From: Alphaproteobacteria bacterium
GTDB taxonomy: Bacteria; Pseudomonadota; Alphaproteobacteria; Puniceispirillales; UBA1172
DNA length: 59,622 nucleotides
Reading direction: 5' to 3'
Assembly: GCA_018701255.1 (NCBI GenBank)
Contig: JABIWM010000080.1
Coordinates: forward strand, 1 to 59,622
The position numbers and the translations under genes are program-made. Below, piece after piece: positions 2,243 through 21,235 of this stretch; the stretch's first letter is position 1, and each line of letters begins with the position of its first letter. The notes below the pieces were generated by a model, which made no database searches, was not told the DNA's origin, and was given only the letters and a program-made list of their open reading frames with translations.

Positions 2243-2254
2243 CGGTATCATAGC

Positions 2255-3064: not shown

Positions 3065-3108
3065 TCACCGAATCTTACAAGCCTAACAAAGGAAAAGGAG
3101 ATCACATC

Positions 3109-3711
3109 ATGGAACCACAAATCAGAAAAATTGTGACTTACAAAGAAATCATCACATCTGATGGCGGCAAAGAAGCAGAACAGCCGCTGGTGCTGTTCGG
3201 TGCCGCCGCCGTCATAAAAAACCCATGGGCAGGCCGTGGTTTTGTTGAAGATTTAATGCCGGAAATCAGAGTATTTGGCCCTAAAATGGGACAAATCCTG
3301 ACGGATCAAATGCTAGAACTTGGCGGTGGTGGCGATACTATCGAAGCGCTTGGGAAAGCATCCATGGTTGGGCTGGACGGTGAGCTGGAACATGCTTCGG
3401 CGATTATCCATACCGTTAATTATGGTAATGTTCTGCGTAAAGCTGTTGGCGGCACGGCCTATCTGGGCTTTACCAGCACAAGAGGCCCCGGCAATACCCA
3501 GCTTAATATTCCGCTTATGGATAAAAATGATACTGGCCGGCGGTCGCATTATCTGACGGTTCAGATGCATATTCATGATGCACCGGCTGATCAGGAATTG
3601 ATTGTTGCTTTTGGCGGGTCAACTGGCGGCCGTCCCCATCACCGCATTGGTGATCGGTATTCTGATCTGGCCGCGATAGGGGCTGATCTGGATAATCCGG
3701 CTGGCGTTTAA
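3109..3711 (+). CDS. 'amino acid synthesis' family protein (PF06684/DUF1185-like), paralog 1
   Basis: 200 aa with the signatures IRK...NPWAGR..EDL...GKA..G.DGELEH...IPL...RSH...GGRPHHRIG. These are shared with ORF 9307..9888. GGAGA lies upstream of the ATG. Confidence 0.6.
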   Translation: MEPQIRKIVTYKEIITSDGGKEAEQPLVLFGAAAVIKNPWAGRGFVEDLMPEIRVFGPKMGQILTDQMLELGGGGDTIEALGKASMVGLDGELEHASAIIHTVNYGNVLRKAVGGTAYLGFTSTRGPGNTQLNIPLMDKNDTGRRSHYLTVQMHIHDAPADQELIVAFGGSTGGRPHHRIGDRYSDLAAIGADLDNPAGV

Positions 3712-3731
3712 ACCGCAATATTGTAATCATT

Positions 3732-3761
3732 CAGCAGGGCGGAGAGATTTTTGCTCTGCTG
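3732..3761 (+). terminator. possible intrinsic terminator hairpin between convergent genes
   Basis: CAGCAGGGC (3732-3740) pairs with GCTCTGCTG (3753-3761) with one mismatch. ATTTTCT follows on the + strand. The U-tract is weak. Confidence 0.25.
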
Positions 3762-3791
3762 ATTTTCTGGCTCGATTAGCTTGGCTTTATT

Positions 3792-5234
3792 TTATCGGAC
3801 GGATGCGGTCAATTTAGCCAGATCAGGTAATGGCCGCATGGTTTCCGGATGCGATGCCAGCACCTGTTCAATCGCCAGACCAATGGCTAGTAATTTGCGA
3901 TCTGTCCCCGGCGCGCCTAGCAACTGAATCCCAAACGGCATGCCGTCCTGATCAACACCACATGGCACCACCAGCGAACATGCCATCACCATTGTTGGCG
4001 CATAGCTGAGCGCAAGCCATGTCATATATGTTGGCAATTTTACCTGATCAATCGTATCAATATATTTCGTTGTTTTCGCAAATGGCGCAACAGATGCCGC
4101 CGGACAGATCACAACATCCACCTCATCAAATAGCGATAACCATGCTCTGGCCAGAATTGTTTGCGTATGTGAGGCATCTGCCACATCAGCAAGCGTATAG
4201 GTCAGCGCCCTATCCACATTATCAACCACTAACGGGCTGATCACATCACGATGCGTATCGACATAATCCTTGAGGCCGGCAACATAACTAACCCCTCGCA
4301 AAATCTCAAAGCAGTCATGGATATTATCAAAAACCGGATCACGCCGCTGGCATTCTTTGAACGATGCGGCCAGATGCCCAACCCGTTGATCAAACAAGCC
4401 GCGTATCACATTCGCAACCGGTGCTACCCCCAAATCAGTGGAAATCGCAGCGGTCATCTGGCTTAAATCTGCTGGATCAAGCGATGCCGGCATATCCCCA
4501 CGCGCCGTATGTGAAAACGGATCACGCGGATCAACCGATGATTGCGCGTGTAATAACAATATGGCATCAGAAACATGTCTGGCCATAGGGCCCAGCACGG
4601 GAAATGGCGCCAGCCCAACCGCTTTATCAACATCTGGAACACAGCCGGGGCTAGGCCGGAAACCGACAATGCCGCAAAAACTGGCCGGTGTTCGTAAGCT
4701 ACCGCCAAAATCCGACCCTGACGCTAGCGGCACCATGCCCGCGGCCAGTGCGGCGGCTGACCCACCTGATGAGCCAGATGGCGTTTTATCAGTATCAAAC
4801 GGATTGGCGGATATGCCAAAAACATCATTCCATGTATTGCCGCCCGTGCCATGTTCCGGGGTGTTTGTTTTGCCAATAACAATACCGCCAGCTGATTTTA
4901 CCTTAGCCACCGACAAATCATCCTGATCAGGAATATGATCCTTGAACGGCAGAGCGCCATAGGTTGTTTTGATACCGGCAGTGGCTTCTAAATCCTTGAT
5001 GCCGACTGGTAATCCGGCTAATGCCCCGATATCTTCGTTTTTAAGACATCGGGCTTCGGCATCCCTAGCGCTATCCATAGCGCGGTCAAAATCCCGCGTG
5101 ACCATAGCATTTAACGCCGTATCAACCGCTTCAATCCGGTTGATTGATGCTTCCATTACTTCAACAGGTGAAAAATCACCTTTTTTAATACCTGCAACCA
5201 GCGCGGTTGCTGTCATATTGCAAAAATCTGTCAT
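3792..5234 (-). CDS. amidase-signature (AS) family amidase
   Basis: 480 aa with GSSGGSAAALAAG and GSDFGGSLRTPASFCG, the Ser-cisSer-Lys signature region. Confidence 0.9.
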   Translation of the reverse strand: MTDFCNMTATALVAGIKKGDFSPVEVMEASINRIEAVDTALNAMVTRDFDRAMDSARDAEARCLKNEDIGALAGLPVGIKDLEATAGIKTTYGALPFKDHIPDQDDLSVAKVKSAGGIVIGKTNTPEHGTGGNTWNDVFGISANPFDTDKTPSGSSGGSAAALAAGMVPLASGSDFGGSLRTPASFCGIVGFRPSPGCVPDVDKAVGLAPFPVLGPMARHVSDAILLLHAQSSVDPRDPFSHTARGDMPASLDPADLSQMTAAISTDLGVAPVANVIRGLFDQRVGHLAASFKECQRRDPVFDNIHDCFEILRGVSYVAGLKDYVDTHRDVISPLVVDNVDRALTYTLADVADASHTQTILARAWLSLFDEVDVVICPAASVAPFAKTTKYIDTIDQVKLPTYMTWLALSYAPTMVMACSLVVPCGVDQDGMPFGIQLLGAPGTDRKLLAIGLAIEQVLASHPETMRPLPDLAKLTASVR

Positions 5235-6750: not shown

Positions 6751-7740
6751 ATGCGGGCATTATCTGATGACCGAATACTGGATTTGGCGGTCGAATGGCA
6801 TCAATCAGGGCGTGATCTGGCTATCGCTATTGTTATTCAGACATGGGGATCATCCCCCCGGCCAGCCGGTAGCGTAATGATTATCCGTGATGACGGCCAC
6901 ATAGAAGGTTCAGTATCCGGCGGCTGTGTCGAAAGCGCCGTGATGCAGGCCGCTAATGACGTTATGATTAACGCCACTGCAACACAGCTTAATTTTGATG
7001 TCGCGGACGAAGACGCATGGCAAGTCGGGTTATCTTGTGGCGGCGCCATATCGGTTTGGATATGCGCCAGCACCGCCAAGACCAATCATATGGCTGATTT
7101 GTTTGTCTATATCAAAACGCAATTTGCTCAACGGCAAGCGGCGGTGATTGACTGTCATATCGACCAGCACATGATGACCATTGCCGGGACAGATCAGCCT
7201 GCCAACACACTATCCGGTGATGGCACATGTTTTCGTCTATCCGTTGACCCCCAGCCCCGGCTTTATATTATTGGTGCCGTGCATATTAGCCAGCATCTGG
7301 CACCAATGGCGATGGCGGCAGGGTTTGATGTCAGCGTCATTGACCCCCGCACCAGTTTTATAAATGAAGCCCGTTTTCCGGATACAACGCTGATCAAAGA
7401 CTGGCCAGATGATATTCTTGATGCGGCGGCACTAGATCATATGTCAGCTGTCGTAACGCTAACTCATGATCCGAAACTGGATGATGCTGCCTTGCGGATA
7501 GCGTTGCACCGCCCAGTATTCTATATCGCCAGTCTGGGCAGTCGCCGCACTCATGCCAAACGGTGCGACCGGTTAAAACAGGATGGCTTTACCGATGATC
7601 AACTGGCGCGGATAAGCGCACCAGCAGGATGTGATATCAAGGCCAGAACACCAGCGGAAATTGCTGTATCCATTCTGGCTGAGCTGATCGCGATACGCCG
7701 TGGGGCTGTGTCTGTATCTGCTGGTATGATGGGTGATTAA
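6751..7740 (+). CDS. xdhC: XdhC/CoxI-family molybdenum-cofactor insertion chaperone
   Basis: 329 aa with the typical N-terminal XdhC_CoxI region (...GSSPRPAGSVMIIRDDGHIEGSVSGGCVE...) and a C-terminal Rossmann-like XdhC_C region (RLYIIGAVHISQ...). Confidence 0.8.
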   Translation: MRALSDDRILDLAVEWHQSGRDLAIAIVIQTWGSSPRPAGSVMIIRDDGHIEGSVSGGCVESAVMQAANDVMINATATQLNFDVADEDAWQVGLSCGGAISVWICASTAKTNHMADLFVYIKTQFAQRQAAVIDCHIDQHMMTIAGTDQPANTLSGDGTCFRLSVDPQPRLYIIGAVHISQHLAPMAMAAGFDVSVIDPRTSFINEARFPDTTLIKDWPDDILDAAALDHMSAVVTLTHDPKLDDAALRIALHRPVFYIASLGSRRTHAKRCDRLKQDGFTDDQLARISAPAGCDIKARTPAEIAVSILAELIAIRRGAVSVSAGMMGD

Positions 7741-8383
7741 GGACATGCGTAATATTGGCGGAATCCTGTTGGCGGCCGGACAATCAACCCGCATGGGACG
7801 CAAAAACAAACTTCTTATGCCCGTGGATCACACATCCGAGCCCATGATCCGGATAGCGGCAAAAACCATGCTGGACAGCCAGCTGGATCAGTCCATGATT
7901 ATTCTGGGGCATGAAGCCGGATACCTTGCCGATGCGATATCGGATTTACCCATAGCACAACATGTTAATCCGAATTATGCCAAGGGCATGAGCCAGTCTA
8001 TTTGTCATGGGCTAGACCGGATCGGTGATCATGTCACCGATGTCATGATCCTGCTTGCCGATATGCCCAATATCACGGCGCAAATGATCAATGCGCTTTA
8101 TCAGCATCACATATCTGCCGCCAACCCTGACCATTCCATCACCTTACCGGTGATAAAATCAAAAACCCGGCAACCGCGCCCTGCTAATCCGGTGATATGG
8201 GGGAAGTCCTTTTTGCCGCTTTTGCGCCAGATCACAGGCGATAAAGGCGGCAGGGATATCATTACATCACATCCGCATGCCGTTAATCCGCTTGCTATAA
8301 ATGATGACAGATGCTTTCTTGATGCAGATACTATTGATGATCTGGCCATTATTTCTGATAGCCGCCAAACAAGAAGAATGTGA
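7733..8383 (+). CDS. MobA-like NTP transferase, probably molybdenum cofactor cytidylyltransferase (MocA-like)
   Basis: GGILLAAGQSTRMGRKNKLL nucleotide-binding N-terminus. The start is either GTG at 7733 (overlapping xdhC by 8 nt) or ATG at 7745. Confidence 0.7.
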   Translation: MIKDMRNIGGILLAAGQSTRMGRKNKLLMPVDHTSEPMIRIAAKTMLDSQLDQSMIILGHEAGYLADAISDLPIAQHVNPNYAKGMSQSICHGLDRIGDHVTDVMILLADMPNITAQMINALYQHHISAANPDHSITLPVIKSKTRQPRPANPVIWGKSFLPLLRQITGDKGGRDIITSHPHAVNPLAINDDRCFLDADTIDDLAIISDSRQTRRM

Positions 8384-8491: not shown

Positions 8492-9271
8492 ATGAGCTTT
8501 ACCTGTCCTGATTCTGCTTTTTCAGAAACCGTTACCGAAGTTGAACATTATACAGACCGGCTGTTCCGGTTTCGGCTGACCCGTCCGGCCAGCTTTCGCT
8601 TCCGGTCGGGGGAGTTTGTGATGATCGGACTGCCCGGCGAAAAACCGGTATGGCGCGCTTATTCCATTGCTAGCCCATCATGGGATGAAACGATTGAGTT
8701 TTATTCAATTAAAGTCCCCGGCGGGCCGTTAACCGAACATCTGCAAAATATCAAGATTGGCGATAATGTCTGGTTCCGCAAAAAACCAACAGGCACTTTG
8801 GTGCTTGATGCGCTTCTGCCCGGTAAGCGGCTATGGATGATATCCACCGGCACCGGGTTTGCGCCATTCGCTTCGCTTATTCGTGATCCCGAAGCATATG
8901 AAAAATTCGAATCCCTGATCGTGACCCATACCTGTCGTGAGGCCGCTGAGTTGAGCTATTCTATCAATACCGTTGCTGCAACGAAAGCTGATCCGCTGGT
9001 TGGTGAGCTGGCTGACCGGCTTCACCTAGTAGCCACTACCACGCGCGAAGACACGTCATTCATGGGACGCATTACCGATTTAATGGAAAACGGTAAATTA
9101 TATACGCATCTGGGGGTGCCGCCGCTTGATCCCGAGCATGATCGCGTCATGATCTGTGGATCAATGGCCATGCTGAAAGACGTTAAAGCCATACTGGACA
9201 ATGCGAATTTCACCGAAGGTTCAAACAGTATGCCCGGTCAATATGTGGTTGAACGGGCATTTGTTGATTAA
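8492..9271 (+). CDS. fpr: ferredoxin/flavodoxin-NADP+ reductase
   Basis: 259 aa with the FAD motif RAYSIAS and the NADP motif GTGFAPF. The C-terminal ...YVVERAFVD ending is typical of bacterial Fpr. Confidence 0.85.
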   Translation: MSFTCPDSAFSETVTEVEHYTDRLFRFRLTRPASFRFRSGEFVMIGLPGEKPVWRAYSIASPSWDETIEFYSIKVPGGPLTEHLQNIKIGDNVWFRKKPTGTLVLDALLPGKRLWMISTGTGFAPFASLIRDPEAYEKFESLIVTHTCREAAELSYSINTVAATKADPLVGELADRLHLVATTTREDTSFMGRITDLMENGKLYTHLGVPPLDPEHDRVMICGSMAMLKDVKAILDNANFTEGSNSMPGQYVVERAFVD

Positions 9272-9306: not shown

Positions 9307-9888
9307 CTAGCGCAGCCCGTCTTCGCCTTTGATATCCTCAACCGCTAATCCGCCCATGCGGTGATGAATACGGCCGCCTTTGGTCATGGCCAGACAGAAC
9401 ATGATCTCACCCCGGCGCGGCGAATCAGCTAGCCGGACTTCCATGGCGTCAAAATGGCTCCTGACATAGGCGGCATTAATATGGCCTAACGGGATATCAA
9501 TAGCACATCCGGCGCCGCCCACCTTCATCGAAGACGGAACGATAGCCTTGGCTTCGCCCAGTCTTTCCCGCATCGCATATCCACCCGGCACATGCCAGAG
9601 CGCGGTATGTTCCAGCTCACCATCTTCGCCAGCAAGCCCGGCCTTACCATAGCCATCAATACCATCAAGACCGCCAAGCGCATCAATCAGCTCATCTGTC
9701 ATCATCAACCCCAGCGGCTTCAGATCATCCATCACCGATTGCAAGTCTTCGTGATATTTACCAGCAAAGGGATTGCTTACCACCGCCACCATTGCCGCGC
9801 GCATCCGCGGTGTTTGCGGGGCGGGGCCGCCTTCGTGATAAATCGTTTCCAGAAAAAGCTGTGTTTTACGAATAGGAAAGCTTGTCAT
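9307..9888 (-). CDS. 'amino acid synthesis' family protein (PF06684/DUF1185-like), paralog 2
   Basis: 193 aa. It shares IRK, NPFAGK..EDL, GKAG..GEDGELEH, IPLGH, RSH and GGRIHHRMGG with ORF 3109..3711. Its ATG overlaps the upstream gene's stop by 4 nt. Confidence 0.6.
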   Translation of the reverse strand: MTSFPIRKTQLFLETIYHEGGPAPQTPRMRAAMVAVVSNPFAGKYHEDLQSVMDDLKPLGLMMTDELIDALGGLDGIDGYGKAGLAGEDGELEHTALWHVPGGYAMRERLGEAKAIVPSSMKVGGAGCAIDIPLGHINAAYVRSHFDAMEVRLADSPRRGEIMFCLAMTKGGRIHHRMGGLAVEDIKGEDGLR

Positions 9889-10790
9889 CTTATTTTCTCC
9901 ATCAGTTGCATCGCTTCATGTTTTATTTGTCCGGTATTGAGATACTGATCCAGCCCGACCACCCGAATATGATCTTTGACCCTGATCAATGCACCGGCCA
10001 CCGGTTTTAGTGCCATAATCGCATTTGCTTCGTTTTCACCGGCATCTAATGCCCATTCTATTGCCGCCGGCGATAATGCCGCGACCGATGTGACAATGGG
10101 CTGATCGCCCAGATCACTTTCTGGCAATAACGCATTTGCCGGAACGCGCGTCACCGCCTGCATATCCGGATGGTCTGACGGCAAATCAGCAGGCAGATTA
10201 ACCGCATTAGCAATCATGGTTGCCGCCGCGTCTGCATTGGCCGCATGGTCAGCTAGCACAACAACCGCATCTGCTATACCAAGCGAAAAGCTGCGGCCGC
10301 CATATCCGGATGTGGCCATACCCCGGCAATTGCTATCATGGGGTATCGTGCATCGTGCCGCGTCCAGATTGGCCATGATTGCCGTTGCGTCATATCCATC
10401 TGCCACCCAGAACGCAATATCGCCGCCATTATTCACGCTTGCCTTGGTCAAACCGGATTCAGCGGTCATGGCCGCCAGCACATGATCGGCTACCGCGCCT
10501 GCGACGGCCGCCATTGGTGTAATAAACCGGTTTTCATAGCCGCTAGTTGCATCAGCCATGCGGCGTGCCACCGGATGCCGGTAATGATCAGGTGATTGCG
10601 TTTTCTGGCGCAAATACGGCAATTCAACCACTAACCGTTCCAGCAGATATTGCATCGCCTGTATCGCTTTCCGATAGGCACGGTCTGCGGATACGCCTTC
10701 TGCTTTTATGATCAGATCAATCGGCCCATGCGATAGATGTAGCCGGTTATCGGGCGGCAACCATGCGGCTTGGATAGAAGATACAGACAT
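9885..10790 (-). CDS. UPF0280 family protein with ApbE-like (flavin transferase superfamily) signatures
   Basis: 301 aa with HGPIDLII, ITPMAAVAGAVAD, NNGGDIA, MATSGYGGRSFSLGIADAV and ADAAAT. These patterns resemble the ApbE/UPF0280 fold. Confidence 0.5.
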   Translation of the reverse strand: MSVSSIQAAWLPPDNRLHLSHGPIDLIIKAEGVSADRAYRKAIQAMQYLLERLVVELPYLRQKTQSPDHYRHPVARRMADATSGYENRFITPMAAVAGAVADHVLAAMTAESGLTKASVNNGGDIAFWVADGYDATAIMANLDAARCTIPHDSNCRGMATSGYGGRSFSLGIADAVVVLADHAANADAAATMIANAVNLPADLPSDHPDMQAVTRVPANALLPESDLGDQPIVTSVAALSPAAIEWALDAGENEANAIMALKPVAGALIRVKDHIRVVGLDQYLNTGQIKHEAMQLMEKIR

Positions 10791-10811
10791 GACCGACTCG
10801 CCAGTTAATGG

Positions 10812-12263
10812 TTAATCATCATGATCAGACGATATAACAGAAAGCACCTGACTGTCTTTGGAATACTCACCACCGGTTTTGATAATATCAGCTACCGAAC
10901 GGATTTGTTCGGCATGTCCGCCCAGCGCGATATATTCATCCTTAGTTGTCGTAAACTCCAATGGTGCAACAATCGCTGGGGTTGGCACATAACCAAACGC
11001 GTTTTCAGGCATATTCGCCACATCAACCATGATCGTGATACCGCCCCCCGGCCAGATAAAGCCCTCAATGCCGCCGCAGGTGACTTTTGTCTGACGTGAT
11101 TGCACGGATTCGGTTAGCCGGATCGGGTTTGTTGTCACCCCGGCGCGCAATGAGCCGCCAGCCCCACCCATAAACATCACCGTACAAAGCGCCGGTTCAC
11201 AATTTTCAGCAATCAGATCAACACTGTCTTGCAAATCTTTTGGCATGGGATGCGGCTGTGGCACCAGATCATCATCAAGAATATAATATCCGGAATGTTC
11301 ACCGGTTGTTGATACCATCAGCATGGTTAATCCCGGCCGTGCGCCTTTGGCTTGTCGCCATGCGCCCAGAATCTTGAGCGGGTCTTCCAGATTTGTTCCG
11401 CCCCAGCCCAGCCCCGGTTCAGCCACTTGAAAATATCGGCCGGGGGTTGATCTGCGGCCATTTATGGTGATGCCTGTATCCGGCCAGTCCAGCACCTTGC
11501 CGGCCTGATGTTCAGACACAACACCGGTAATGTGATCATCAACGACAACAACCTCATCAACATGACCAAGCCATTGCGAAGCAAACATTCCGATAGTCGC
11601 TGATCCGCACCCAACCCGCATGCGGTGTTCCATTTTGCCATCAACGATGGGGGCTTTGCCGGATTCAACAATGACGGTTGATCCGCCATCAATGCTTAAT
11701 TCAACCGGCTCTTTATTACATAGCTTCATCAGCGCATCACATGTCACCCGACCTTCAGCTTTGCTGCCGCCAGTCAGATGATCAACGCCGCCCAATGACA
11801 GCATTTGTGAGCCATATTCGCTAGTCATGACTAACCCCACCGGCTCACCATTGGCGCGAATAACCGCGCCTTCCTTGCCTAAATGCCGGTCTGTATCAAT
11901 TTTGACTTTCACCCCGCAATACGAAAAAATAGCTTCGGTTACAACAGTAACAAAATCCGCGTTATCATGATGCTGGCCAACAATGAACGGTGCCGGTTTA
12001 TAATCCGGATAAGTAGTACCGGCACCTATGGCCGTGACAAAAGCGCCATTTTCCTGATGCAGATTGCCATCCCATTCTGCCCCCAGAAATGGTTTTACGG
12101 CATCGCCTGCTTCTATCCGGCGATCAAGAATAGTTAACGGATCAAGCCGTATAATCTGGCCATCCTTATTGGCGTAACGGTCACAAGCACCGGAATTGCC
12201 GTCAGCGATATAACACATCACCGGACAGGCATCGCATCTGATTTTTTCTGTTGTTTTGCTCAT
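10812..12263 (-). CDS. Fe-S protein resembling 6-hydroxynicotinate reductase (Hnr-like)
   Basis: 483 aa. N-terminal Cys cluster C-x2-C-x3-C-x9-C ([21 protein letters not shown]). The family assignment is from memory of the NCBI '6-hydroxynicotinate reductase' family, which co-occurs with UPF0280 and PF06684 genes. ATGA overlap with the upstream gene at 12260-12263. Confidence 0.45.
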
Positions 12264-15019
12264 TCCGCCGCCTCATGCGTGGTGTTGTTAGCCGTGATTG
12301 CCGCAAGCACGCGGTGCGGCACAGCAGGAGTTTGATATATTCTTGCGCCGCCTGTCGCATCGGTAATGGCGTTCAGAATAGCAGGCGCGGTCGGGATCAA
12401 CACATGTTCCCCCAATCCTTTGACCCCCATAGGGCCTTCGGGGTCGGGGACTTCTATCAGATGATATTCAATGTCCGGCATATCACCAATAGAAGGGATC
12501 AGATAATCATGCAAATTTTCTGTTCGGCCGGGGATATATTCTTCCATCAACGCCATGCCCAATCCTTGCGCTATGCCGCCATCAATCTGGCCTTCTGCCA
12601 GCAATGGATTGACCACTTTGCCCAGATCATGCGCCGCCGAAATGTTCAGCACTTTCACCGTGCCTAATTGCATATCCACCTCAACCACCGCCGCATGCGC
12701 GCCAAATCCGTAAACCGCATACGGCTTGCCCTGCCCATATTCATCCAGCTCTTCGGTTGGCGGATTATAGGTTTCTTCGGCCATCAGAACATAGCCGTAA
12801 TCATTCACCGGCAATGGATTAAGCGCGATATCAATTTGCTTATCGCCATGAATAACCGTGATGATGCCCTGTTCAATCTCAATAACCGCGTCATCACCCA
12901 GATTGCTTAACCGCAAAATCTGACCACGCAGGGCTTGCCCTGCCAGCATGGCGGCTTTGCCGGTAATAAACGTCTGGCGTGACGCTGACGTTTTGCCGCA
13001 ATCCGGCGTAATGGCGGTGTCACCACCAACAAGCGATATATCCGCCAGCGGAATACCCAGTGCATCCGCACAAATCTGCGTGATAACGGTGTTTGACCCC
13101 TGACCGATATCTGCCGCGCCCTGATGCAGGACAACCGCGCCTTCGGATGTGATTCCCAACCGGATTGTTGACGGGTTGGGAAGCGCGGTATTCCCGCAAC
13201 CATACCAGCAAGACGACACGCCAATACCACGTTTTTTTCTGGTGTTTCTGGCGTTAAAATCAGCAATCTGTTTCTGATGAAGATGCCAGAATGGTTCTAA
13301 CGCCGCCAGACATTCATCAATACCAACCGCGGTTAATATCTGATTACAGATTGTCCGGTCGCCATTTTTCAAGGCATTGAGCCGCCGGAAGGCCAGCCTG
13401 TCCATATTACATTTTTGCGCCAGTTCATCATAAAGCGCTTCTTGAATAATAGTCGACTGCGGCACACCAAACCCGCGAAACGCACCTGATGGCGGGCCGT
13501 TGGTATGAATAGCTCTGCCCTTGGCCAGATAATGTGGCGTTTTATACGGGCCGGATGCATGAATAGGCACCCGACTAGCCACGGTAGGCCCCCAGCTTGC
13601 ATATGCGCCGGTATTAAAATCACCTGTGAATTCCATCGCCGCAATGCGGCCATCCGCATCGGTCGCAATCCTTGCCCGCATATCCCCCGGATGGCGTTTA
13701 GTTGTCGACATCATGGATTCCTGACGCGAATATACCATCCGGCATGGCAGGCCGGTTTTGAGCGCCACCAGACCAAGCAATGGCTGAACCGATACATCCA
13801 GCTTTGAGCCAAAGCCGCCACCGGTTGCCGATGGAATAATCCGAACCTTTTCCTGCGCCAGACCAAGCACCTTGGCCGTATCATCACGATCCATAACAGG
13901 GGCTTGCGTGCAGGCCTGAATGACAACCGTATCGCCATCCATCCATGCGGTGCCTGCTTCGGGTTCTATATAGGCATGTTCCACATAACCTGTTGAAAAC
14001 GTCATTTCAGCCACATGTTCTGCTGTGGCAAAACCGGCATCAATATCACCATGTTTGACCATGCCGGTAATCAGCAGATTATGATCACGGTGCGGATGAA
14101 TTTGTACCGCCCCAGCCTTAACCGCTGTCTGCACATCCATGATGGGTTGCCGTTCTGTCCATGAAATCGGAAAGTCGGATATATCCTGTGATGCAATATC
14201 CTGCGAATAGCCAACAATCAATGCTACCGCTTCGCCTTTGAATCTGGTCACATCACTGGCTAGTGCTGGTTGATCCGCCATGGCCGGAATCACGCCAAAC
14301 CGGTTATCACCATCAATATCACTTGCCAGAAACACATGACTGATCTGATCATGTTTCGCTGTCCATGCCGCCACATCACCGATAGAAAACTGCGCGGAAT
14401 GATAAGGTGAGCGAAGCACCCGAACATATAGCGCCCCTGCTGGCCATTCATCAGCACCGAATATTTCGGTTCCATTAAGTTTCGGAATACCGTCCAGCCG
14501 TTCTACTCTGGCGCCAACCGCAATATTGCGGTCAGGCATCGGTGCCGCTGGTTTCGGGTTCGCGGCATCCATCACCGCATCAATAATTTTGGCATAACCG
14601 GTACAGCGGCATAACACGCCGCCCAATGCGTCTTCGACTTCGCATCGGCTAGGCGTTTTATTCTGGCGAATCAGCGGCGTTGCCGCCATCAGCATACCGG
14701 GCGTACAAATCCCGCATTGCGCTGCTCCATGCCGGCTGAATGATTGCTGTAATAATGACAGCGTATCCCCATCGGCCAGACTTTCAACCGTTTCAATGTG
14801 ACAGCCATCTGCTTTGGCCGCTGTCATCAGACATGAACAGACCGGCTCACCGTCAACCAGAACTGTGCAGGCACCACAATCACCGGCATTACAGCCGACT
14901 TTTGTTCCCATCAGATGCAATTCTTCACGCAAAACTTCGCTTAACCGCATGCTAGCCGAACAGGTGACAGCTTCCACCTTGCCATTTACCGTTATCGTGA
15001 ATTGGTTTTGGTCGCTCAT
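12260..15019 (-). CDS. xanthine dehydrogenase-family molybdo-hydroxylase, fused [2Fe-2S] + molybdopterin-binding subunit
   Basis: 2Fe-2S motifs [19 protein letters not shown] and CRCTGY at the N-terminus, and GGGFGSK plus a long MoCo domain after that. I set the start at the ATG at 15019 ([14 protein letters not shown]...), which overlaps the stop of the FAD subunit as ATGA. Confidence 0.85.
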
Positions 15020-15891
15020 GCCGTGCTCTCCGGTTGTCTGGTTGCGGATATAAGGCAATGATCAATTGCCGCATGCAGAAGCGTGGTTGCCGCCTGAATA
15101 CGATAGCTGGCTGAACCGCGCACATCATCAATCGGATTAATGACCGCCTCAACATCGGCGGCCACGACCAGATCAGACGCGGATAATCCGGATGCCGGAT
15201 CAATTTCTGTTCCAATTAGCGCTTGTTCCACCGCGTGCAATCGCACCGCAACCGGACTGCAAGACCCTAGCGATAGCGCGGCTTGCGTGATGCGGTTATC
15301 GGTTATCACCATTCTGGCGGCGGCCATGACAATAGAAATGATCAGATATTTTCTTGTCCCCAGTTTCTCAAACGCCGACACGCCACTTTCGGCTGATTTG
15401 GGAATTATGATGGCGGTCATGATTTCATCTGGCTGGCGCATGGTTTTGCGTGGGCCTAACAGAAAATCGGATAATAGCATCTGCCGTCTGCCCGCGGTTG
15501 AGGCCAACTCAACCGACGCATCCAGTGCTAATAAACACGGAATGCTATCAGCGGCCGGTGATGCATTACATAAATTACCGGCAATTGTTCCCACATTCTG
15601 AATCTGGATAGACCCAATTTCCCGCGCCGCCAGTTTCAACATGTCATAAGCTGGCGGCAAATCCGCCCGAACAATATCTGTCCATGTTGTAGCACCGCCA
15701 ATACGCCGGATATCCCCCATATCGGTTATCCCGCGCATATCCTTGATGCCCGTTACATCCAGCACATGACCAGTCATTTGCGGGGCTGTGGTTAGCGGAA
15801 ATAAATCCGTACAACCCGCCGCAATGACAGCGGCGGTTGACGAAGATAGCGCGTCTAGCGCATCTTCGATTGTTGTTGGCCGGTAATACAT
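15016..15891 (-). CDS. FAD-binding subunit of the molybdo-hydroxylase (CoxM/XdhB-like)
   Basis: [15 protein letters not shown]...AAGCTDLFP... is typical of FAD_binding_5 subunits. The start is ambiguous (ATGs at 15918, 15906 and 15891); I chose 15891 by comparison with typical N-termini. Confidence 0.8.
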
Positions 15892-15921
15892 GTTATCTGA
15901 AAGCATAAGGATCAACATAAA

Positions 15922-15959
15922 CTGTTAGTACACAAACTAATTTGCTATTTTGCTAACAG
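15922..15959. promoter_or_regulatory. nested inverted repeats in the marR / hydroxylase divergent promoter (operator candidate)
   Basis: The outer inverted repeat is CTGTTAG (15922-15928) and CTAACAG (15953-15959). The inner palindrome is TTAGTacacaaACTAA at 15925-15940, containing GTACACAAA. Confidence 0.5.
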
Positions 15960-15988
15960 CCTGTCAATATCGATTTAAGGATGCCGCT

Positions 15989-16462
15989 ATGAAGAAAATG
16001 CCACTTTCCGTTGTTGATACAGACCATCATGATGCTGATAGCATGGCGGCGGCGGCCGATTATCAGCTAGAAGATCAGGTTGGCTTTATCATGCGATGCG
16101 TCAATCAGCGGCATTTATCGATATTCAGCCGTTTAATCCCTGAGCTAACCCCGACACAGTTTTCCGCATTAGCCAAGCTTTGCGCCACCGGTCAGGCATC
16201 CCAGAATGAGCTAGGGCGCATGATTGCCATTGATGCCGCCACCATAAAAGGCGTGGTAGACCGGTTAAAACATCGCGGGCTGATTTCATCCGAAAGCCAG
16301 CCATCCGATTTACGGCGACTGATTCTGAAACCAACAGAAGAAGGCCGGCAATTATTTCATCAGATCAGCGCGGCCGCACGGCAGGTATCCGAAGACACGC
16401 TAAAACCGCTGAGCGAAAAAGAAAAACAAGTTTTTATGAATTTGCTTGCTAAACTGCGTTAA
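15989..16462 (+). CDS. MarR-family transcriptional regulator
   Basis: Winged-HTH MarR pattern (...TPTQFSALAKLCATGQASQNELGRMIAIDAATIKGVVDRLKHRGLI...). The ATG at 15989 has AAGGA upstream. It is divergent from the hydroxylase operon. Confidence 0.85.
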   Translation: MKKMPLSVVDTDHHDADSMAAAADYQLEDQVGFIMRCVNQRHLSIFSRLIPELTPTQFSALAKLCATGQASQNELGRMIAIDAATIKGVVDRLKHRGLISSESQPSDLRRLILKPTEEGRQLFHQISAAARQVSEDTLKPLSEKEKQVFMNLLAKLR

Positions 16463-16482: not shown

Positions 16483-17178
16483 TTACACGCCAATATATTT
16501 TTTCAATATATCCGGATTATCACGCAGATGATCAGCTGACATGACATCGCGATTCATGCCATTTTCAAGGAACATCACTTTATCAGCAATGGACAGAACC
16601 GCATCAACACGCTGTTCCACCAGCAAAATACCAACACCCTGTTTTTTGAGCTCAACCACCGTATCACGGATCAGCGCAATCATGGATGGCTGCAAGCCTT
16701 CGGTGGGCTCATCCAGCAATAACAATTGTGGCTCAAGGCATAACGCCCGTCCAGTAGCCAGCATTTGCTGTTCGCCGCCGGATAATGTATTCGCCCGCTG
16801 ATCAAGCCGTTCAGCCAATCTGGGAAACATGCCCAGCACCTTATCACGAGTGGCCGCCGATTTGCCGCCTGCCATTAATCCGATTTCCAGATTTTCGGCC
16901 ACAGTGAGCTCAGAAAAAAGCCGCCTGCCTTGCGGAATATAACCTATTCCGCATCCGGCAATTTTATGGGGGGCAATGGCGGTTAAATCTGTTCCGTTAA
17001 ATATGATCTGACCCTGACTGGCCTTGAGCAATCCCATGATTGTTTTCATCATGGTCGTTTTGCCAGCACCATTACGGCCAAGAATACAGACAATCTCGCC
17101 AGCATTAAGGCTAAGCGAAACTTCTCTGAGCACCTGCGCGCCCGCATATCCTGATGATACGGATGTCAGCTCAAGCAT
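16483..17178 (-). CDS. HAAT-family ABC transporter ATP-binding protein (LivF-like)
   Basis: Walker A GRNGAGKTT, signature LSGGEQQML, Walker B LLLLDEP. The ATG at 17178 overlaps the upstream stop by 8 nt. Confidence 0.9.
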   Translation of the reverse strand: MLELTSVSSGYAGAQVLREVSLSLNAGEIVCILGRNGAGKTTMMKTIMGLLKASQGQIIFNGTDLTAIAPHKIAGCGIGYIPQGRRLFSELTVAENLEIGLMAGGKSAATRDKVLGMFPRLAERLDQRANTLSGGEQQMLATGRALCLEPQLLLLDEPTEGLQPSMIALIRDTVVELKKQGVGILLVEQRVDAVLSIADKVMFLENGMNRDVMSADHLRDNPDILKKYIGV

Positions 17179-17896
17179 GGGTTTCTCCCAGATAGGCAAT
17201 CTGCACATCACGATTGCCGCGAATATCGGCAGGCGTTCCTGTTGCCAGCACCTTGCCCAGATTAAGCACCGTGATCTGATCCGCTGTATCCATCACCACA
17301 TTCATATTATGTTCGATCAGCAATATGGTCATATCGCCGCCAAGCTCACGGATCAATTTTACAAAACCGGCAATCTCACTATCCGCCAGCCCCTGTGTGG
17401 GCTCATCCAGAATAAGCAATTGCGGATGCTGGCTAATCCCCATGGCAATTTCCAGCAACCGCTGATGCCCATAGCTCAAATCGCCTGCCATCTGATCCAT
17501 GCGATCTGCCAGCCCGACTTTTTCCAGCGATTCTTCTATGGTGTTCTGAATCGCCTGTTCATCATTGCCCCATCGCCATGATGTGGCTAGCCGGACATTA
17601 TCCTTAAGGCTCAAACGGCCATAAATGGATGTGATCTGAAACGTATAGGCAATGCCCTGACGGATACGTTTATGGGCGGGCAGTGCCGTTACGTCCTTGC
17701 CATCAAACATGATGCGCCCCGCTGATACCGGAATCCGGCCGCATAACATGCCGACAAAAGTCGACTTGCCAGCACCATTAGGCCCGATAATCGCCCTGAT
17801 CTCGCCTCTGGGGACGGCGAAATCCACTTGATCTACGGCTACCAGACCCCCAAAATGGCGGCTGATTCCATCCGCGCTAATATGCGGTGTTGTCAT
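17171..17896 (-). CDS. HAAT-family ABC transporter ATP-binding protein (LivG-like)
   Basis: Walker A GPNGAGKST, LSYGHQRLLEIA, LLILDEP. The ATG at 17896 gives an ATGA overlap with the permease stop; an alternative start is 17905. Confidence 0.9.
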   Translation of the reverse strand: MTTPHISADGISRHFGGLVAVDQVDFAVPRGEIRAIIGPNGAGKSTFVGMLCGRIPVSAGRIMFDGKDVTALPAHKRIRQGIAYTFQITSIYGRLSLKDNVRLATSWRWGNDEQAIQNTIEESLEKVGLADRMDQMAGDLSYGHQRLLEIAMGISQHPQLLILDEPTQGLADSEIAGFVKLIRELGGDMTILLIEHNMNVVMDTADQITVLNLGKVLATGTPADIRGNRDVQIAYLGETHA

Positions 17897-18855
17897 GATA
17901 GCCATGGCACTACCTTCCGCCGGAATTCACCCACCAATCCTTGCGGCAGGAACAGCGTTAACAACACTAACGCCAGACCTGCAATCAACATATATGCTGT
18001 GGTAAAGGAACTAGACAGATCAATCAGATAAAACATGAACAATGTTCCGATAAATGGCCCCAACGCTGTTCCGGCACCGCCAAGCAGAACCCAGAGCAAC
18101 GGGAAAATAGAATACTGAACAGACGCAAAAGTCGCACCAGCATAGCCGAATAGCAACGCATATGCCGCCCCTGCCAATGCCGCCATCGTGCCAGACATAA
18201 TCACCGCCATCCATTTATGGAAATGAACATCATAGCCCAGCATATGGGTGCGTTCCTCATTCTCACGAATGGCAATCATGACACGGCCAAACCGGCTATG
18301 GACAAGCCGGATTGTCAGCAGCAGGCAAATGGAAAACAGAATAAGCGCCGCGTTATAGCGGTTCGTGGGCTGGCTTAAATCAAAACCTGCCATCACCCGT
18401 TCCGCCTGTTTAATGACAAAGCCCTCATCACCGCGTGTCCATTCGCCAAAATACAGAATGGTTAGAAAACCGGCCTGTGCAAACATTAGCGTCACAATCA
18501 TGAAAGACACTCCGCTTGTCCGCAAAGCAAGGAACCCGATACCGGCCGATACCACCACTCCCACCACTATTGCAGAAATCAGCGCCGGTTCCGGTGTCCA
18601 GCCAAGATGCACCATGGGCAAGCCCATGCCATACATACCAGCGGCAAAAAACATCGCATGGCCAAGGCTTAGCAAGCCGGTATAGCCAAATAGAATATTA
18701 TATCCCATCGCATAGCATGCCAGCACCATAATCCGCGCCAGATTGCCGTGATGATAGGCAGGCAGAATAAATTGCAGGATAAATAATGCCCCTATCAAAC
18801 CCAGATGAAAATAAAGCGATTTTCTGGCATCTGTCATTCCGGTTTTTTCTATCAT
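17893..18855 (-). CDS. HAAT-family ABC transporter permease (LivM-like)
   Basis: 320 aa polytopic protein with the GYTGLLSLGHAMFFAAG motif typical of LivM-type permeases. Confidence 0.85.
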   Translation of the reverse strand: MIEKTGMTDARKSLYFHLGLIGALFILQFILPAYHHGNLARIMVLACYAMGYNILFGYTGLLSLGHAMFFAAGMYGMGLPMVHLGWTPEPALISAIVVGVVVSAGIGFLALRTSGVSFMIVTLMFAQAGFLTILYFGEWTRGDEGFVIKQAERVMAGFDLSQPTNRYNAALILFSICLLLTIRLVHSRFGRVMIAIRENEERTHMLGYDVHFHKWMAVIMSGTMAALAGAAYALLFGYAGATFASVQYSIFPLLWVLLGGAGTALGPFIGTLFMFYLIDLSSSFTTAYMLIAGLALVLLTLFLPQGLVGEFRRKVVPWLS

Positions 18856-19778
18856 GGGTTATGCTTCCCCAAAAGCCCGGATGGACGGAAAATCAGCACA
18901 AATGTCACTATCAGCGTGGCAATAATCTTGGCCAGCGTAGGCGTGAAGAAAACGGAAATAAGCCCATCGCTCAACCCGATCAGCACCGCCGCAACAACCG
19001 TTCCGGCCAGACTGCCCAGACCGCCGATAATAACAACAATAAATGATAACAAAAGCGGATCATGTCCCATCAGATAATGCGCTTGCTGAATAGGAACAAT
19101 CAGCACCGCGGCAAGCGCCGCTAGTCCGGCACCTAGCCCGAACACAAGCGCATAAACCCGATCCACATTAATGCCATAAGCCTGTGCCACATCACGATCA
19201 AGTTGCGTGGCACGCATGATCAGCCCAATCCGTGTCCGCGTCATCAGCACCCATATAGCCAAGAGCAGAATAACCGCAAACCCGATAACAGCCAGTTTAT
19301 ATGTTGTCGTACCAAGCCCCCACGGCCAGTACATGGATAAACCGCTTTCTGTCCATTCAAACCATGGTATGGAAATGCGCTGATTAAAAGGCGGCTCAAC
19401 CGGTCTGGCGTTTGAGCCGTATGTCATCAGCGTGACTTGCTGAATAATATAGAGCAAGCCAATAGTCGCCACAATCGTGCGCTCAGGGTCATATTTGATA
19501 CGCTTTAAAATCATGGTATCGGCAACAACAGCCAGACTACCGACCAGCACCGGCGCAATAAATAATGCCGCAACAAATGATATTGCGGGATGCCCGCCAA
19601 TCATATCGGCCACAAACCATGCCAGCACCGCGCCTAGCATAAAAAACTCACCATGCGCGACATTAACCACGCGCATGACGCCGAACACAAGACTAAGCCC
19701 AACCGCCATCAGCGCCAACACGGCGGCGGTTACTAATCCTTCAATGCTACCGAGTATCAAATAAGGTGCAAGTTCCAT
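18852..19778 (-). CDS. HAAT-family ABC transporter permease (LivH-like)
   Basis: 308 aa polytopic protein with the LVFGVMRVVNVAHGEFFMLGA motif typical of LivH-type permeases. 4-nt overlap with the downstream permease. Confidence 0.85.
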   Translation of the reverse strand: MELAPYLILGSIEGLVTAAVLALMAVGLSLVFGVMRVVNVAHGEFFMLGAVLAWFVADMIGGHPAISFVAALFIAPVLVGSLAVVADTMILKRIKYDPERTIVATIGLLYIIQQVTLMTYGSNARPVEPPFNQRISIPWFEWTESGLSMYWPWGLGTTTYKLAVIGFAVILLLAIWVLMTRTRIGLIMRATQLDRDVAQAYGINVDRVYALVFGLGAGLAALAAVLIVPIQQAHYLMGHDPLLLSFIVVIIGGLGSLAGTVVAAVLIGLSDGLISVFFTPTLAKIIATLIVTFVLIFRPSGLLGKHNP

Positions 19779-19803
19779 GATTTACATGATCTATGAATAA
19801 AAA

Positions 19804-19846
19804 TGAAAAAAAATCTCCCCCCGCTTAATCGAAAACGGGGGAAGAC
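19804..19846 (-). terminator. intrinsic terminator/attenuator between the binding-protein gene and the permease genes
   Basis: On the - strand: TCTTCCCCCG-(12 nt loop)-CGGGGGGAGA followed at once by T8. The stem has a core of 6 G:C pairs and 3 more pairs after one mismatch. It lies between the stop at 19857 and the next start at 19778. Confidence 0.6.
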
Positions 19847-19856
19847 ATCAATGTGA

Positions 19857-21152
19857 TTAGAAGGATTGCTTCGTGTAATCCACTTCATCCGGATAAAGCG
19901 TATCTTCGATAGAAGTTGTATGAACCAGATCAAGTTTGCTGTTACTGACTTTGGTAATGTATTGATGACCAAAGACCTGATGGGTTTTCCCATTAAAGCG
20001 TTTTGCGCCTTGCGGATGCGCGTCGGAATGGGGCATATCAGACATGCTTTCAACCGCTTCGATCAGCTTTGCCCGATCACCGGTGCCGCGATATCCTGAT
20101 GCTTCCATGCCTGCCTTGACGATGTGCAGGGTTTCCCAGCAACCGAACATATGGGCATAAGTAGACACGTCTTTTGAATCCGAAACAGATGCACCATTTG
20201 CATCGACCCCGACAGCCGCCCGATATGCTTTATCATATTCGGACTGATTGGCCTGGGCGTAACGTGGATTGCCTTCCCAGAAATATGTGCCTTCTAGGAA
20301 CTCAAGCCCCGGGCTGGACAAATCTGTTGCTTCCAGACTGTCAATAAAGCCAAAGATTTCCGGACGTGAGCTACCAAAAAACTCACCCATTTCCTTAACA
20401 AAGGTAAGAACCGCTGGCCCCACCATCACATGATAGATGACTTCTGTGTCACGCGGGATTTTCGGGAAGTATTTTGTGAATGACGTTTCTGTTGGTGGAA
20501 TAGCAATTTTTTCAATCACCTGTCCGCCCTGTGCTTCGATAGCGGCAGAAAAATAATCTCTATGATCATGCCCGAAAGCAAAATCCGGATATACCATGGT
20601 TACTTTCTTACCCAGATTATTTGCAACGAACGGCGCCATGGCCTGAACCTGGCTTTTCACATCGGTGATGCCGGGCTGAAGCGTGTAACGGTTAAGCGCA
20701 CCGCTAGCTACATGATGGCCTTCTGATACAACAAAATATGGTATCTTTAATTCACCAGCGCGTGGGGCAGAACCATATACCACATGGCTAAATAGCGTAC
20801 CAAAAGCCAGATCAGCGTTATGCTGAGTTGCGAATTTTTCTACGACTTCGGCGCCACGCTTCGGGTCTGTTCCATCGTCTTCGGCAATGATTTCAACAGG
20901 CCGACCATTTATACCGCCAGCGTTATTGATTTTTTCAACAGCGGCCATGGTCGTGCGATCATACCAGCGGCCATAAGCAGCACCAATACCGGTGCGGTGA
21001 ACCTGAAAGCCAATCTTGATTGGCTCTGCGCTTTGTGTCTGGGCGTAACGACCCATCAACGGCATGGAAACAGCACCAAGTGCCAGACTAGCCGCCGCGC
21101 CCTTGATGATCTGACGACGTGGCGTCAATAAAGATTTTGATGTTTTTTTCAT
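19857..21152 (-). CDS. ABC transporter substrate-binding protein, Leu/Ile/Val-binding-protein family, with a Tat-like signal
   Basis: I moved the start to the ATG at 21152 (MKKTSKSLLTPRRQIIKGAAASLALGAV...), which has GGAGGA upstream. The twin-arginine RRQIIKG plus hydrophobic region looks Tat-like. The mature part has the type I periplasmic binding fold pattern. Confidence 0.85.
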   Translation of the reverse strand: MKKTSKSLLTPRRQIIKGAAASLALGAVSMPLMGRYAQTQSAEPIKIGFQVHRTGIGAAYGRWYDRTTMAAVEKINNAGGINGRPVEIIAEDDGTDPKRGAEVVEKFATQHNADLAFGTLFSHVVYGSAPRAGELKIPYFVVSEGHHVASGALNRYTLQPGITDVKSQVQAMAPFVANNLGKKVTMVYPDFAFGHDHRDYFSAAIEAQGGQVIEKIAIPPTETSFTKYFPKIPRDTEVIYHVMVGPAVLTFVKEMGEFFGSSRPEIFGFIDSLEATDLSSPGLEFLEGTYFWEGNPRYAQANQSEYDKAYRAAVGVDANGASVSDSKDVSTYAHMFGCWETLHIVKAGMEASGYRGTGDRAKLIEAVESMSDMPHSDAHPQGAKRFNGKTHQVFGHQYITKVSNSKLDLVHTTSIEDTLYPDEVDYTKQSF

Positions 21153-21191
21153 ATTTTCCTCCCAATCAAACAACATAATACTAGCTGTAAG

Positions 21192-21210
21192 AACATATGT
21201 GTACAAACAG
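21192..21210. promoter_or_regulatory. operator-like motif upstream of the binding-protein gene
   Basis: The reverse complement of 21192-21207 reads TTTGTACACATATGTT. It lies 40-58 nt upstream of the ATG at 21152. Confidence 0.4.
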
Positions 21211-21235
21211 TCTGACCATAAAAAACCTTGTTTGT

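Follow-up and report, generated by a model that had tools for sequence, protein, structure and literature searches.

What do five closely packed genes on the minus strand at positions 9,307–15,918 of contig JABIWM010000080.1 (assembly GCA_018701255.1) contribute to their SAR116-type alphaproteobacterial host, and do they make up a new enzyme system? We addressed this using the whole 59,622-nucleotide stretch of the contig, referred to below as the window. Our reading, to which we assign a probability of about 0.8, is that the five genes form the upper module of reductive nicotinate degradation, the route through 1,4,5,6-tetrahydro-6-oxonicotinate (THON), under a single promoter controlled by a MarR/NicR-type regulator. 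An FAD subunit and a fused [2Fe-2S]/molybdenum cofactor (Moco) subunit would hydroxylate nicotinate at C6 to give 6-hydroxynicotinate, and a 483-aa homologue of 6-hydroxynicotinate reductase (Hnr) would then reduce the C4=C5 bond to yield THON. Electrons would most likely pass from NAD(P)H through the FAD of a ferredoxin-NADP reductase-like (FNR-like) protein to a cluster held by Cys10/13/17/27 of Hnr, on to its flavin and finally to 6-hydroxynicotinate. The two remaining proteins, UPF0280 and PF06684, would be accessories linked to Hnr, the best guess for UPF0280 being that it matures Hnr by installing a cofactor, and the THON ring would probably be opened by a linked caprolactamase-like HyuAB and not by an enamidase. 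Gene content, homology, the conservation of order and overlaps and the fold relations were computed; the substrate, the route of the electrons and what the accessory proteins and HyuAB do are inferred.

The first gene of the operon encodes the FAD-binding subunit (300 aa; 15,016–15,918) and the second the fused [2Fe-2S]/Moco subunit (12,260–15,019), followed by the genes for the Hnr homologue (483 aa; 10,812–12,263), the UPF0280 protein (301 aa; 9,885–10,790) and the PF06684 (DUF1185) protein (193 aa; 9,307–9,888), all taken from the list of open reading frames (ORFs). The longest ORF of the second gene starts with TTG at 15,058; the ATG at 15,019 gives an ATGA overlap and a product of 919 aa. 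ATGA start/stop overlaps are read from the sequence at 15,019–15,016, 12,263–12,260 and 9,888–9,885, and a 21-nt spacer (10,811–10,791) separates the Hnr gene from the UPF0280 gene. Reading of the ORFs and junction sequences thus returned the gene coordinates, the three overlaps and the gap exactly as a preliminary description of this DNA had given them.

A scan of one genome per species identified 80 loci encoding an Hnr homologue 67–97% identical to that of the window, mostly in Alphaproteobacteria (Puniceispirillales/SAR116, Rhodobacterales, Hyphomicrobiales and Rhodospirillales) with one in Granulosicoccus. The order FAD-MoFeS-Hnr-UPF0280-DUF1185, where MoFeS denotes the fused subunit, recurs across this set, the genes being present in 67, 71, 80, 75 and 63 loci, respectively; the missing ones are mostly explained by contig ends. 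Four-nucleotide overlaps join FAD to MoFeS in 44 of 66 loci and MoFeS to Hnr in 46 of 70, the gap between Hnr and UPF0280 is 30 nt or less in 63 of 69, and UPF0280 and DUF1185 overlap in 58 of 61. Chance packing would not account for an order and overlaps conserved in this way. Within the operon, the minus strand has no more promoter-like sites than expected from shuffled sequence and lacks any terminator-like site. Taken with the conserved junctions and the shared promoter region, these results lead us to infer a single transcript, which would allow stoichiometric expression of the five genes. The trio of Hnr, UPF0280 and PF06684, which the preliminary description had named as co-occurring, is conserved as a neighbourhood across the 80 loci and even across phyla.

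Just upstream of the start codon of the FAD-subunit gene lies the probable promoter and operator of the operon (15,925–15,967, minus strand), a function predicted from its -35 box TTGACA at 15,967–15,962 and the palindrome TTAGTTTGTGTACTAA at 15,940–15,925. In many of the loci checked, which come from several alphaproteobacterial orders, a TTGACA box and a TTTGTATACAAA-like palindrome recur at this position, with the MarR gene on one side and the operon on the other. The divergent MarR-family regulator (NicR-like, PF01047) is encoded on the plus strand at 15,989–16,462; its listed ORF starts with TTG at 15,950, and the in-frame ATG at 15,989 is the more likely start. This gene adjoins the operon in 54 of the 80 loci, and its counterpart in Pleomorphomonas is annotated NicR. 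The box and palindrome are therefore likely to represent a NicR-type operator, and the upstream region fits one MarR-controlled promoter.

Pfam domains agree with the preliminary assignment of the first two genes to a hydroxylase of the xanthine dehydrogenase family, with an FAD subunit and a fused 2Fe2S/MoCo subunit. The FAD subunit, which is NdhF-like, matches FAD_binding_5 (PF00941; 147.7 bits, 3.7e-43) and CO_deh_flav_C (PF03450; 53 bits, 4.1e-14), and the 919-aa subunit combines Fer2, Fer2_2, Ald_Xan_dh_C (a/b-hammerhead), MoCoBD_1 and MoCoBD_2 in one protein. Compared with locus L083, which carries a cluster of the Eubacterium barkeri type, the FAD subunit is 37% identical to its counterpart, and three collinear tblastn segments of the 919-aa subunit match the Fer2, MoCoBD_1 and MoCoBD_2 genes with 49, 37 and 41% identity. 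The 919-aa protein thus corresponds to NdhS+NdhL+NdhM of the E. barkeri type. The split molybdopterin protein (NdhL/NdhM) that is the hallmark of the E. barkeri enzyme is not found in the window, where it is fused; in L083 the two parts measure 424 and 324 aa. No NCBIfam equivalog reaches its cut-off with the hydroxylase proteins, and their specificity for C6 of nicotinate would follow from context, namely PncA and Hnr. On the plus strand, beyond the FNR-like gene that converges with the operon, an XdhC-like Moco insertion chaperone (6,751–7,740; PF02625 and PF13478) and a MobA/MocA-like nucleotidyltransferase (7,733–8,383; PF12804) are predicted to act in hydroxylase maturation.

The 483-aa protein is best read, from homology and context, as a homologue of Hnr (EC 1.3.7.1). 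Homologues 72–89% identical to it bear the NCBI name 6-hydroxynicotinate reductase, and it shares 43% identity over 457 aa (E 5e-105) with the Hnr of L083, a reference that comes from an E. barkeri-type cluster of a metagenome-assembled genome and is not E. barkeri's own sequence. The resemblance to Hnr-type reductases suggested in the preliminary description is borne out by both comparisons. The provenance of the reference counts against our overall reading, as does the lack of any match of the protein in Pfam, NCBIfam or the PDB sequences, there being no curated family model; further adverse points, on the electron donor and on UPF0280, are given with those proteins below. Near its N-terminus the protein carries the motif C10-x2-C13-x3-C17-x9-C27. 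This Cys-x2-Cys-x3-Cys-x9-Cys pattern is invariant in the family, Cys219 and Cys355 are conserved as well, and all of these residues are present in the window protein.

A wider search of 1.84 billion cluster representatives retrieved 266 clusters at E ≤1e-30. Among the representatives was a second form of the enzyme, about 510 aa long and bearing an N-terminal 2x[4Fe-4S] ferredoxin domain, whose named members come from Thermodesulfobacteriota, Deltaproteobacteria or Spirochaetes. The Hnr forms of anaerobes have 63–67 extra residues that match Fer4 models. This domain is absent from the window Hnr, in which only nine residues precede Cys10, and ferredoxin-less forms are found in alpha-, beta- and gammaproteobacteria alike. 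The AlphaFold2 (AF2) model of the window protein has a mean pLDDT of 81.9 and a pTM of 0.80, with ten-residue block means mostly above 85 between residues 110 and 460. Since Foldseek found no match for this model in the PDB (best E 8.7e-3, TM-score about 0.1), Hnr would appear to be a flavo-iron-sulfur enzyme without a solved structural relative. In work from 2006 attributed to Alhapel, the enzyme is said to contain one [2Fe-2S] cluster, two [4Fe-4S] clusters and a flavin held by a covalent bond. The additional cysteines C116, C175, C182 and C360 of ferredoxin-less Hnr were considered as ligands of a new iron-sulfur cluster, an idea that found no general support: the Comamonadaceae protein lacks C175 and C182, and C360 is variable.

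The strongest pointer to the pathway comes from the gene neighbourhoods of the form with the ferredoxin domain. In L081 and L082 the genes follow the order Aldedh, Fer2, FAD subunit, Moco subunit, Amidohydro_1, Hnr, (PF27030), PF06684. L083 has FAD, Fer2, MoCoBD_1 (424 aa), MoCoBD_2 (324 aa), a membrane protein, Hnr, PF27030, a 386-aa amidohydrolase, PF06684 and NAD_binding_2, a layout (split Moco protein, enamidase, Hgd-type dehydrogenase) that we take to be shared by the nicotinate fermentation cluster of E. barkeri. Each of the five window proteins matches a counterpart in L083, the PF06684 protein with 41% and UPF0280 with 29% identity. Two clusters of the anaerobe type, in which the nearest named relatives of Hnr belong to Thermodesulfobacteriota/Deltaproteobacteria, hold the same gene set, and so do alpha- and betaproteobacterial plasmids. 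From the contexts of the ferredoxin form and the five matches to L083 we conclude that the operon supplies the reductive nicotinate route with its hydroxylase and its reductase, and the preliminary proposal that the operon follows the E. barkeri logic, hydroxylation and then ring reduction, gains the support of all five proteins.

Several linked genes bear on the substrate. A PncA nicotinamidase/pyrazinamidase (NF008623; 209 bits, cut-off 174) adjoins the operon in 15 loci (L010:13118-13714 and 14 others), which points to nicotinamide as an entry substrate, and in some loci BenE-type carboxylate transporters replace the ABC system. PncA, these transporters and the NicR annotation together support nicotinate as the compound degraded. 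The operon might instead act on another N-heterocyclic carboxylate, such as isonicotinate, picolinate or a pyrimidine or quinoline carboxylate, with the name Hnr over-annotated. Divergent Hnr-like paralogues (L084, L085, L086) lack the GCGSA[S/T] motif and lie beside a TctA/B transporter with a dipeptidase-like gene, NIR_SIR, or an M20 peptidase; the unrelated contexts mean that the family is not mono-specific, and it probably reduces other substrates too. VanA-like Rieske oxygenases, linked in some loci, would also suit a different heterocycle. However, the window Hnr has the GCGSA[S/T] motif that marks the Hnr group proper, the 15 loci mentioned have a true nicotinamidase close by, and the operon matches one to one an E. 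barkeri-type cluster that includes enamidase and an Hgd-like gene. Moreover, strain SG-6C, a carrier of such a cluster, mineralises nicotinate and 6-hydroxynicotinate (PMC3511419). We consider a different heterocycle very improbable as the substrate and retain nicotinate.

The Rieske oxygenases are encoded at L016:735-1952, in five other loci and at L087:17529-18599, with carriers among some Hyphomicrobiales, Rhizobiaceae and Sagittula. One may speculate that they are demethylases through which trigonelline or another methylated pyridine carboxylate would enter the pathway.

An Hnr without its own ferredoxin domain most likely draws its electrons from NAD(P)H through the FNR-like flavoprotein, encoded on the plus strand at 8,492–9,271 and convergent with the operon. 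This protein has FAD_binding_6 and NAD_binding_1 domains, its best NCBIfam match is ferredoxin-NADP+ reductase, and we regard it as a candidate NAD(P)H-dependent donor for the ferredoxin-less enzyme. The gene lies directly upstream of hnr in Sagittula stellata and adjoins the cluster in Sulfitobacter and on a Comamonadaceae plasmid. Set against this, it is found within 10 kb of the operon in only 12 of the 80 loci.

That low count would suit a different arrangement, in which the two electrons taken from nicotinate would go straight to 6-hydroxynicotinate within a single complex of the hydroxylase and Hnr, making the net reaction (nicotinate + H2O -> THON) redox-neutral. Such a complex would explain the translational coupling, including the ATGA overlap between the Moco-subunit gene and hnr kept in 46 of 70 loci, and the absence of an electron-entry ferredoxin domain from the window Hnr. 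Gene arrangements elsewhere argue otherwise. In Sagittula the hydroxylase genes and hyuAB occupy a separate, divergent operon and hnr follows the FNR gene, and because of these separate operons a direct shuttle from hydroxylase to Hnr is less likely. The Comamonadaceae plasmid encodes another type of hydroxylase, with a separate 2Fe-2S protein and a very large Moco protein, while the FNR/Hnr/UPF0280/DUF1185 set is unchanged. The A. caulinodans hydroxylase is reported, in work of 1992 attributed to Kitts, to feed the respiratory chain, which we also count against a direct transfer. We therefore hold a hydroxylase-Hnr complex of this kind to be quite unlikely and keep the FNR-like protein as the most plausible donor.

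Two anaerobe Hnr homologues, P0247 (982 aa) and P0252 (969 aa), contain, judged from reading of their sequences, a region resembling GltD/NADPH oxidoreductase. It stands before the whole Hnr part in P0252 and between the N- and C-terminal halves of Hnr in P0247, and such natural GltD-like fusions indicate an NAD(P)H-driven electron supply for this reductase family.

The fourth gene of the operon encodes the UPF0280 protein. Homologues of this protein carry PF27030, are named UPF0280 family protein by NCBI and belong to a family also known as COG2122. A profile of the protein matched PDB entry 2o34 (3.5e-10). Its AF2 model (pLDDT 93.8) retrieved 2o34 with Foldseek and, after it, exclusively flavin transferases of the ApbE/Ftp/FmnB type (5mgy, 7esc, 3pnd, 2o18, 4xgw, 6nxj and 1vrm), all with probability 1.0 and E values of 8e-5 to 1e-3, at TM-scores of just 0.3–0.48. 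By predicted fold, UPF0280 is thus a member of the ApbE superfamily. Motifs NxGGD, ATSG and DxxxT are invariant in UPF0280, and presumably resemble the nucleotide/Mg site of ApbE. The homologue P0196 reaches 22.5 bits on the Pfam ApbE model.

UPF0280 is likely to be an Hnr maturation factor, and given the covalent flavin reported for Hnr, a dedicated transferase of flavin or another cofactor is its most attractive role. That UPF0280 is specifically a flavin transferase is nonetheless a tentative proposal to which we give less than even odds, and several results tell against it. The match to Pfam ApbE (PF02424) is insignificant (E 0.33; 10.9 bits for a cut-off of 25.6). ApbE's flavin-binding region is not conserved in COG2122 (PMC5764234). 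Thr/Ser223 in the Hnr loop GCGSA[S/T] was tried as an ApbE-type FMN attachment site and discarded, since two homologues with UPF0280 adjacent carry other residues there, Ala in the Hnr of Comamonadaceae and Ile in P0259; no ApbE-type [S/T]GA[S/T] acceptor motif is conserved in Hnr. Two further points count against our overall reading: the score of UPF0280 on NCBIfam NF003322 (281.5 bits) falls just below the equivalog cut-off of 290, and one anaerobe-type cluster (L082) has Hnr and PF06684 with no UPF0280 nearby. Domain searches agree with the preliminary description in placing the fourth protein in UPF0280 and the fifth in PF06684; Hnr had no match in Pfam or NCBIfam.

The solved structure closest to the window UPF0280, 2o34, is a Desulfovibrio COG2122 protein, and this relationship suggests another function. 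Desulfovibrio COG2122 is genetically required together with DUF39 and NIL/ferredoxin, with a fitness correlation of r = 0.98 (Price et al. 2018, PMC5764234), and a persulfide role was proposed for it in DUF39-dependent homocysteine synthesis (PMC5764234). UPF0280 might by analogy be a sulfur-trafficking or persulfide-forming factor that matures an iron-sulfur cluster or sulfur ligand of Hnr, a role to which the requirement in homocysteine synthesis and the insignificant Pfam ApbE score lend weight. The persulfide role of COG2122 is itself a proposal, however, and beyond 2o34 the fold of UPF0280 matches flavin transferases exclusively. The invariant motifs, which we take to be like the ApbE nucleotide/Mg site, point the same way, and the covalent flavin that Hnr is said to possess would need installing. 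We judge the sulfur-based role unlikely, somewhat more so than flavin transfer, and continue to favour cofactor installation.

For the PF06684 protein the family assignment is secure (Pfam, 220.4 bits, cut-off 27, 1.5e-65), with PDB matches to 3byq (5.5e-56) and 2qtp (2e-46); its homologues are named amino acid synthesis family protein by NCBI. The family structures of 2010 are hexameric, with a fold resembling chorismate mutase and a pocket of conserved His/Arg/Glu residues. The protein accompanies Hnr even in one divergent paralogue context (L085), where the genes run UPF0280, PF06684, Hnr-like. Two subtypes can be distinguished: A, the window type, goes with every ferredoxin-less Hnr, and B is found in anaerobe clusters. 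Of the 7 subtype-B loci inspected, 6 also have enamidase. The protein could be a partner subunit or a small-molecule enzyme. Activities as a RidA-like enamine deaminase or a 2-formylglutarate decarboxylase were considered, and the A/B pattern settles neither. The amino-acid metabolism reading of the 2010 structure paper, drawn from a neighbouring Liv-type ABC transporter, is unsupported in this context because the Liv-type transporter here belongs to the nicotinate cluster.

How is the THON ring opened? No enamidase homologue was detected in the 59.6-kb window by tblastn or with a hidden Markov model built from four sequences, and none was found in 79 of the 80 loci, the sole exception being L076. 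Granulosicoccus, the Comamonadaceae plasmid, Sulfitobacter and the anaerobe clusters do have an enamidase. The window instead encodes, on the plus strand at 22,809–26,629, a HyuA/HyuB pair of the ATP-dependent lactamase (caprolactamase-like) type with the Pfam domains Hydantoinase_A, _A_N, _A_C and Hydantoinase_B. The best NCBIfam matches of the pair are CapA and CapB (496 and 314 bits), far under the equivalog cut-offs of 1000. HyuAB is found within 10 kb of the operon in 26 of the 80 loci at 59–81% identity. The overlapping genes in Sagittula are FAD, MoFeS, HyuA and HyuB, and in Pleomorphomonas the order is Hnr, UPF0280, DUF1185, HyuA, HyuB, NicR, with HyuAB following the trio through 4-nt overlaps; translational coupling thus ties HyuAB to the hydroxylase in the first genome and to the trio in the second. 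Relatives of HyuAB hydrolyse six-membered lactams (PMC11033972); our literature search found no link between caprolactamase-like lactamases and nicotinate or THON. By analogy, HyuAB is probably an ATP-dependent THON lactamase that has displaced enamidase.

Between the operon and HyuAB, at 16,483–21,278 on the minus strand, Pfam matches identify a Liv-type ABC importer with two ATPases, two permeases and a binding protein, presumed to take up the substrate; its genes are linked in 39–48 of the 80 loci. The ORF of the binding protein (19,857–21,278, minus strand; 473 aa) matches Pfam from residue 86, and translation probably begins at a point downstream of the ATG in the list. Upstream of the binding-protein gene, at 21,236–22,700 on the minus strand, lies a gene for an integral membrane protein of about 450 aa that has no Pfam match and is conserved there in 17 loci. 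An ORF of 186 aa on the plus strand (21,672–22,232, labelled unk186) that had appeared as a conserved neighbour was dismissed as a spurious antisense ORF, the real gene being that of the membrane protein. In Sulfitobacter the homologous position also holds a gene for a PCu(A)C copper chaperone.

A second group of genes, at 211–5,234, is confined to SAR116-type loci (L001-L004, L074) and encodes an aldehyde dehydrogenase, a RidA-family protein, a PcaD/RutD-like alpha/beta hydrolase, a second PF06684 paralogue (3,109–3,711; 34% identity with the copy in the operon) and an enzyme with the amidase signature. This group resembles the enamine/imine handling of the Rut pathway and may be a downstream part of the same route.

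Is the system new? As a whole it is not: the operon is a SAR116 member of a cluster type that is already known. The first three genes of the pathway were reportedly found in nine Proteobacteria, in the 2006 work ascribed to Alhapel. The THON route was found in E. barkeri and later reported in the aerobe Azorhizobium caulinodans (PMC3511419), and the same pathway is summarised in PMC9304392. Bradyrhizobiaceae strain SG-6C mineralises both nicotinate and 6-hydroxynicotinate, its Hnr homologue is 42% identical to the E. barkeri enzyme, and the cluster that includes its hnr has been conserved across A. caulinodans, Bradyrhizobium and Rhodopseudomonas (Shettigar et al. 2012, PMC3511419). The preliminary description had put the operon forward as an undescribed enzyme system. 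That view does not hold, the route being known from E. barkeri and A. caulinodans and the close homologues already named by NCBI; it was overstated because the pathway and a conserved proteobacterial cluster have been reported. Its further remark that the trio has no characterised proteobacterial example is correct for the genes of the proteobacterial clusters themselves, which are uncharacterised, and not for the route, which is attributed to the aerobe A. caulinodans.

What the present analysis adds is a ferredoxin-less Hnr with an FNR-like neighbour, an Hnr model with no relative in the PDB, an ApbE fold predicted for UPF0280, and the linkage of HyuAB in place of enamidase. Nicotinate and nicotinamide (vitamin B3) are metabolites exchanged in the ocean and the rhizosphere. 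SAR116-type, many roseobacter and rhizobial genomes would carry the reductive THON route and not the route by oxygenase that Pseudomonas uses. The widespread families UPF0280/COG2122 and PF06684 acquire here a defined, testable partner, and a lactamase-for-enamidase swap, if true, would be an undescribed step of nicotinate catabolism. Cultured carriers exist in Sagittula stellata E-37, Sulfitobacter and Pleomorphomonas, making the questions of Hnr, its accessory proteins and THON opening directly testable.

The individual observations might be joined into a broader, and in our view doubtful, scheme. Hnr would found a structurally unprecedented class of iron-sulfur flavoreductases always accompanied by an ApbE-superfamily maturase (UPF0280/COG2122) and PF06684; the same type of maturase would serve the DUF39 homocysteine enzyme, so that COG2122 proteins would be cofactor installers for ferredoxin-type reductases, and many marine and soil Alphaproteobacteria would have swapped enamidase for an ATP-dependent caprolactamase-like lactamase.

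Among the closest known systems, the E. barkeri cluster (ndhFSLM-hnr-ena-hgd) shares with the window the first two reactions and the protein families; UPF0280 and PF06684 genes were seen in L083, the cluster of E. barkeri type. The two differ in that the E. barkeri type has NdhS, a split NdhL/NdhM and an Hnr with a ferredoxin domain, whereas the window has a fused 919-aa protein and an Hnr without that domain. In place of enamidase and the Hgd/mutase lower pathway, the window has HyuAB, the FNR-like gene and the Liv-type importer linked to the operon. The cluster of A. caulinodans ORS571, Bradyrhizobium and SG-6C, compared here through the paper and not through the genomes, holds genes for the first three steps and so includes an enamidase-type step (PMC3511419), in contrast to the window and all but one of the 80 loci, which lack an enamidase homologue.

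For the proposed ring opening, the nearest parallels are the lactamases CapAB and 5-oxoprolinase and the valerolactam hydrolases (PMC8453981, PMC11033972), enzymes that open stable lactam rings of 5 to 7 members by hydrolysis; the lactam ring of THON has six members. The ApbE/Ftp/FmnB flavin transferases are, besides 2o34, the sole structural relatives of UPF0280 and have similar small motifs, although the sequence similarity is insignificant. Finally, COG2122 of the DUF39/NIL-ferredoxin homocysteine pathway (DvMF_0044, MA1715; 2o34) belongs by profile and fold to the same family as UPF0280. It differs in partner enzyme and pathway, and the window protein falls in the NF003322 subgroup and not in the methanogen or Desulfovibrio subgroups, yet both systems pair a COG2122 protein with a ferredoxin-linked enzyme of uncharacterised fold.

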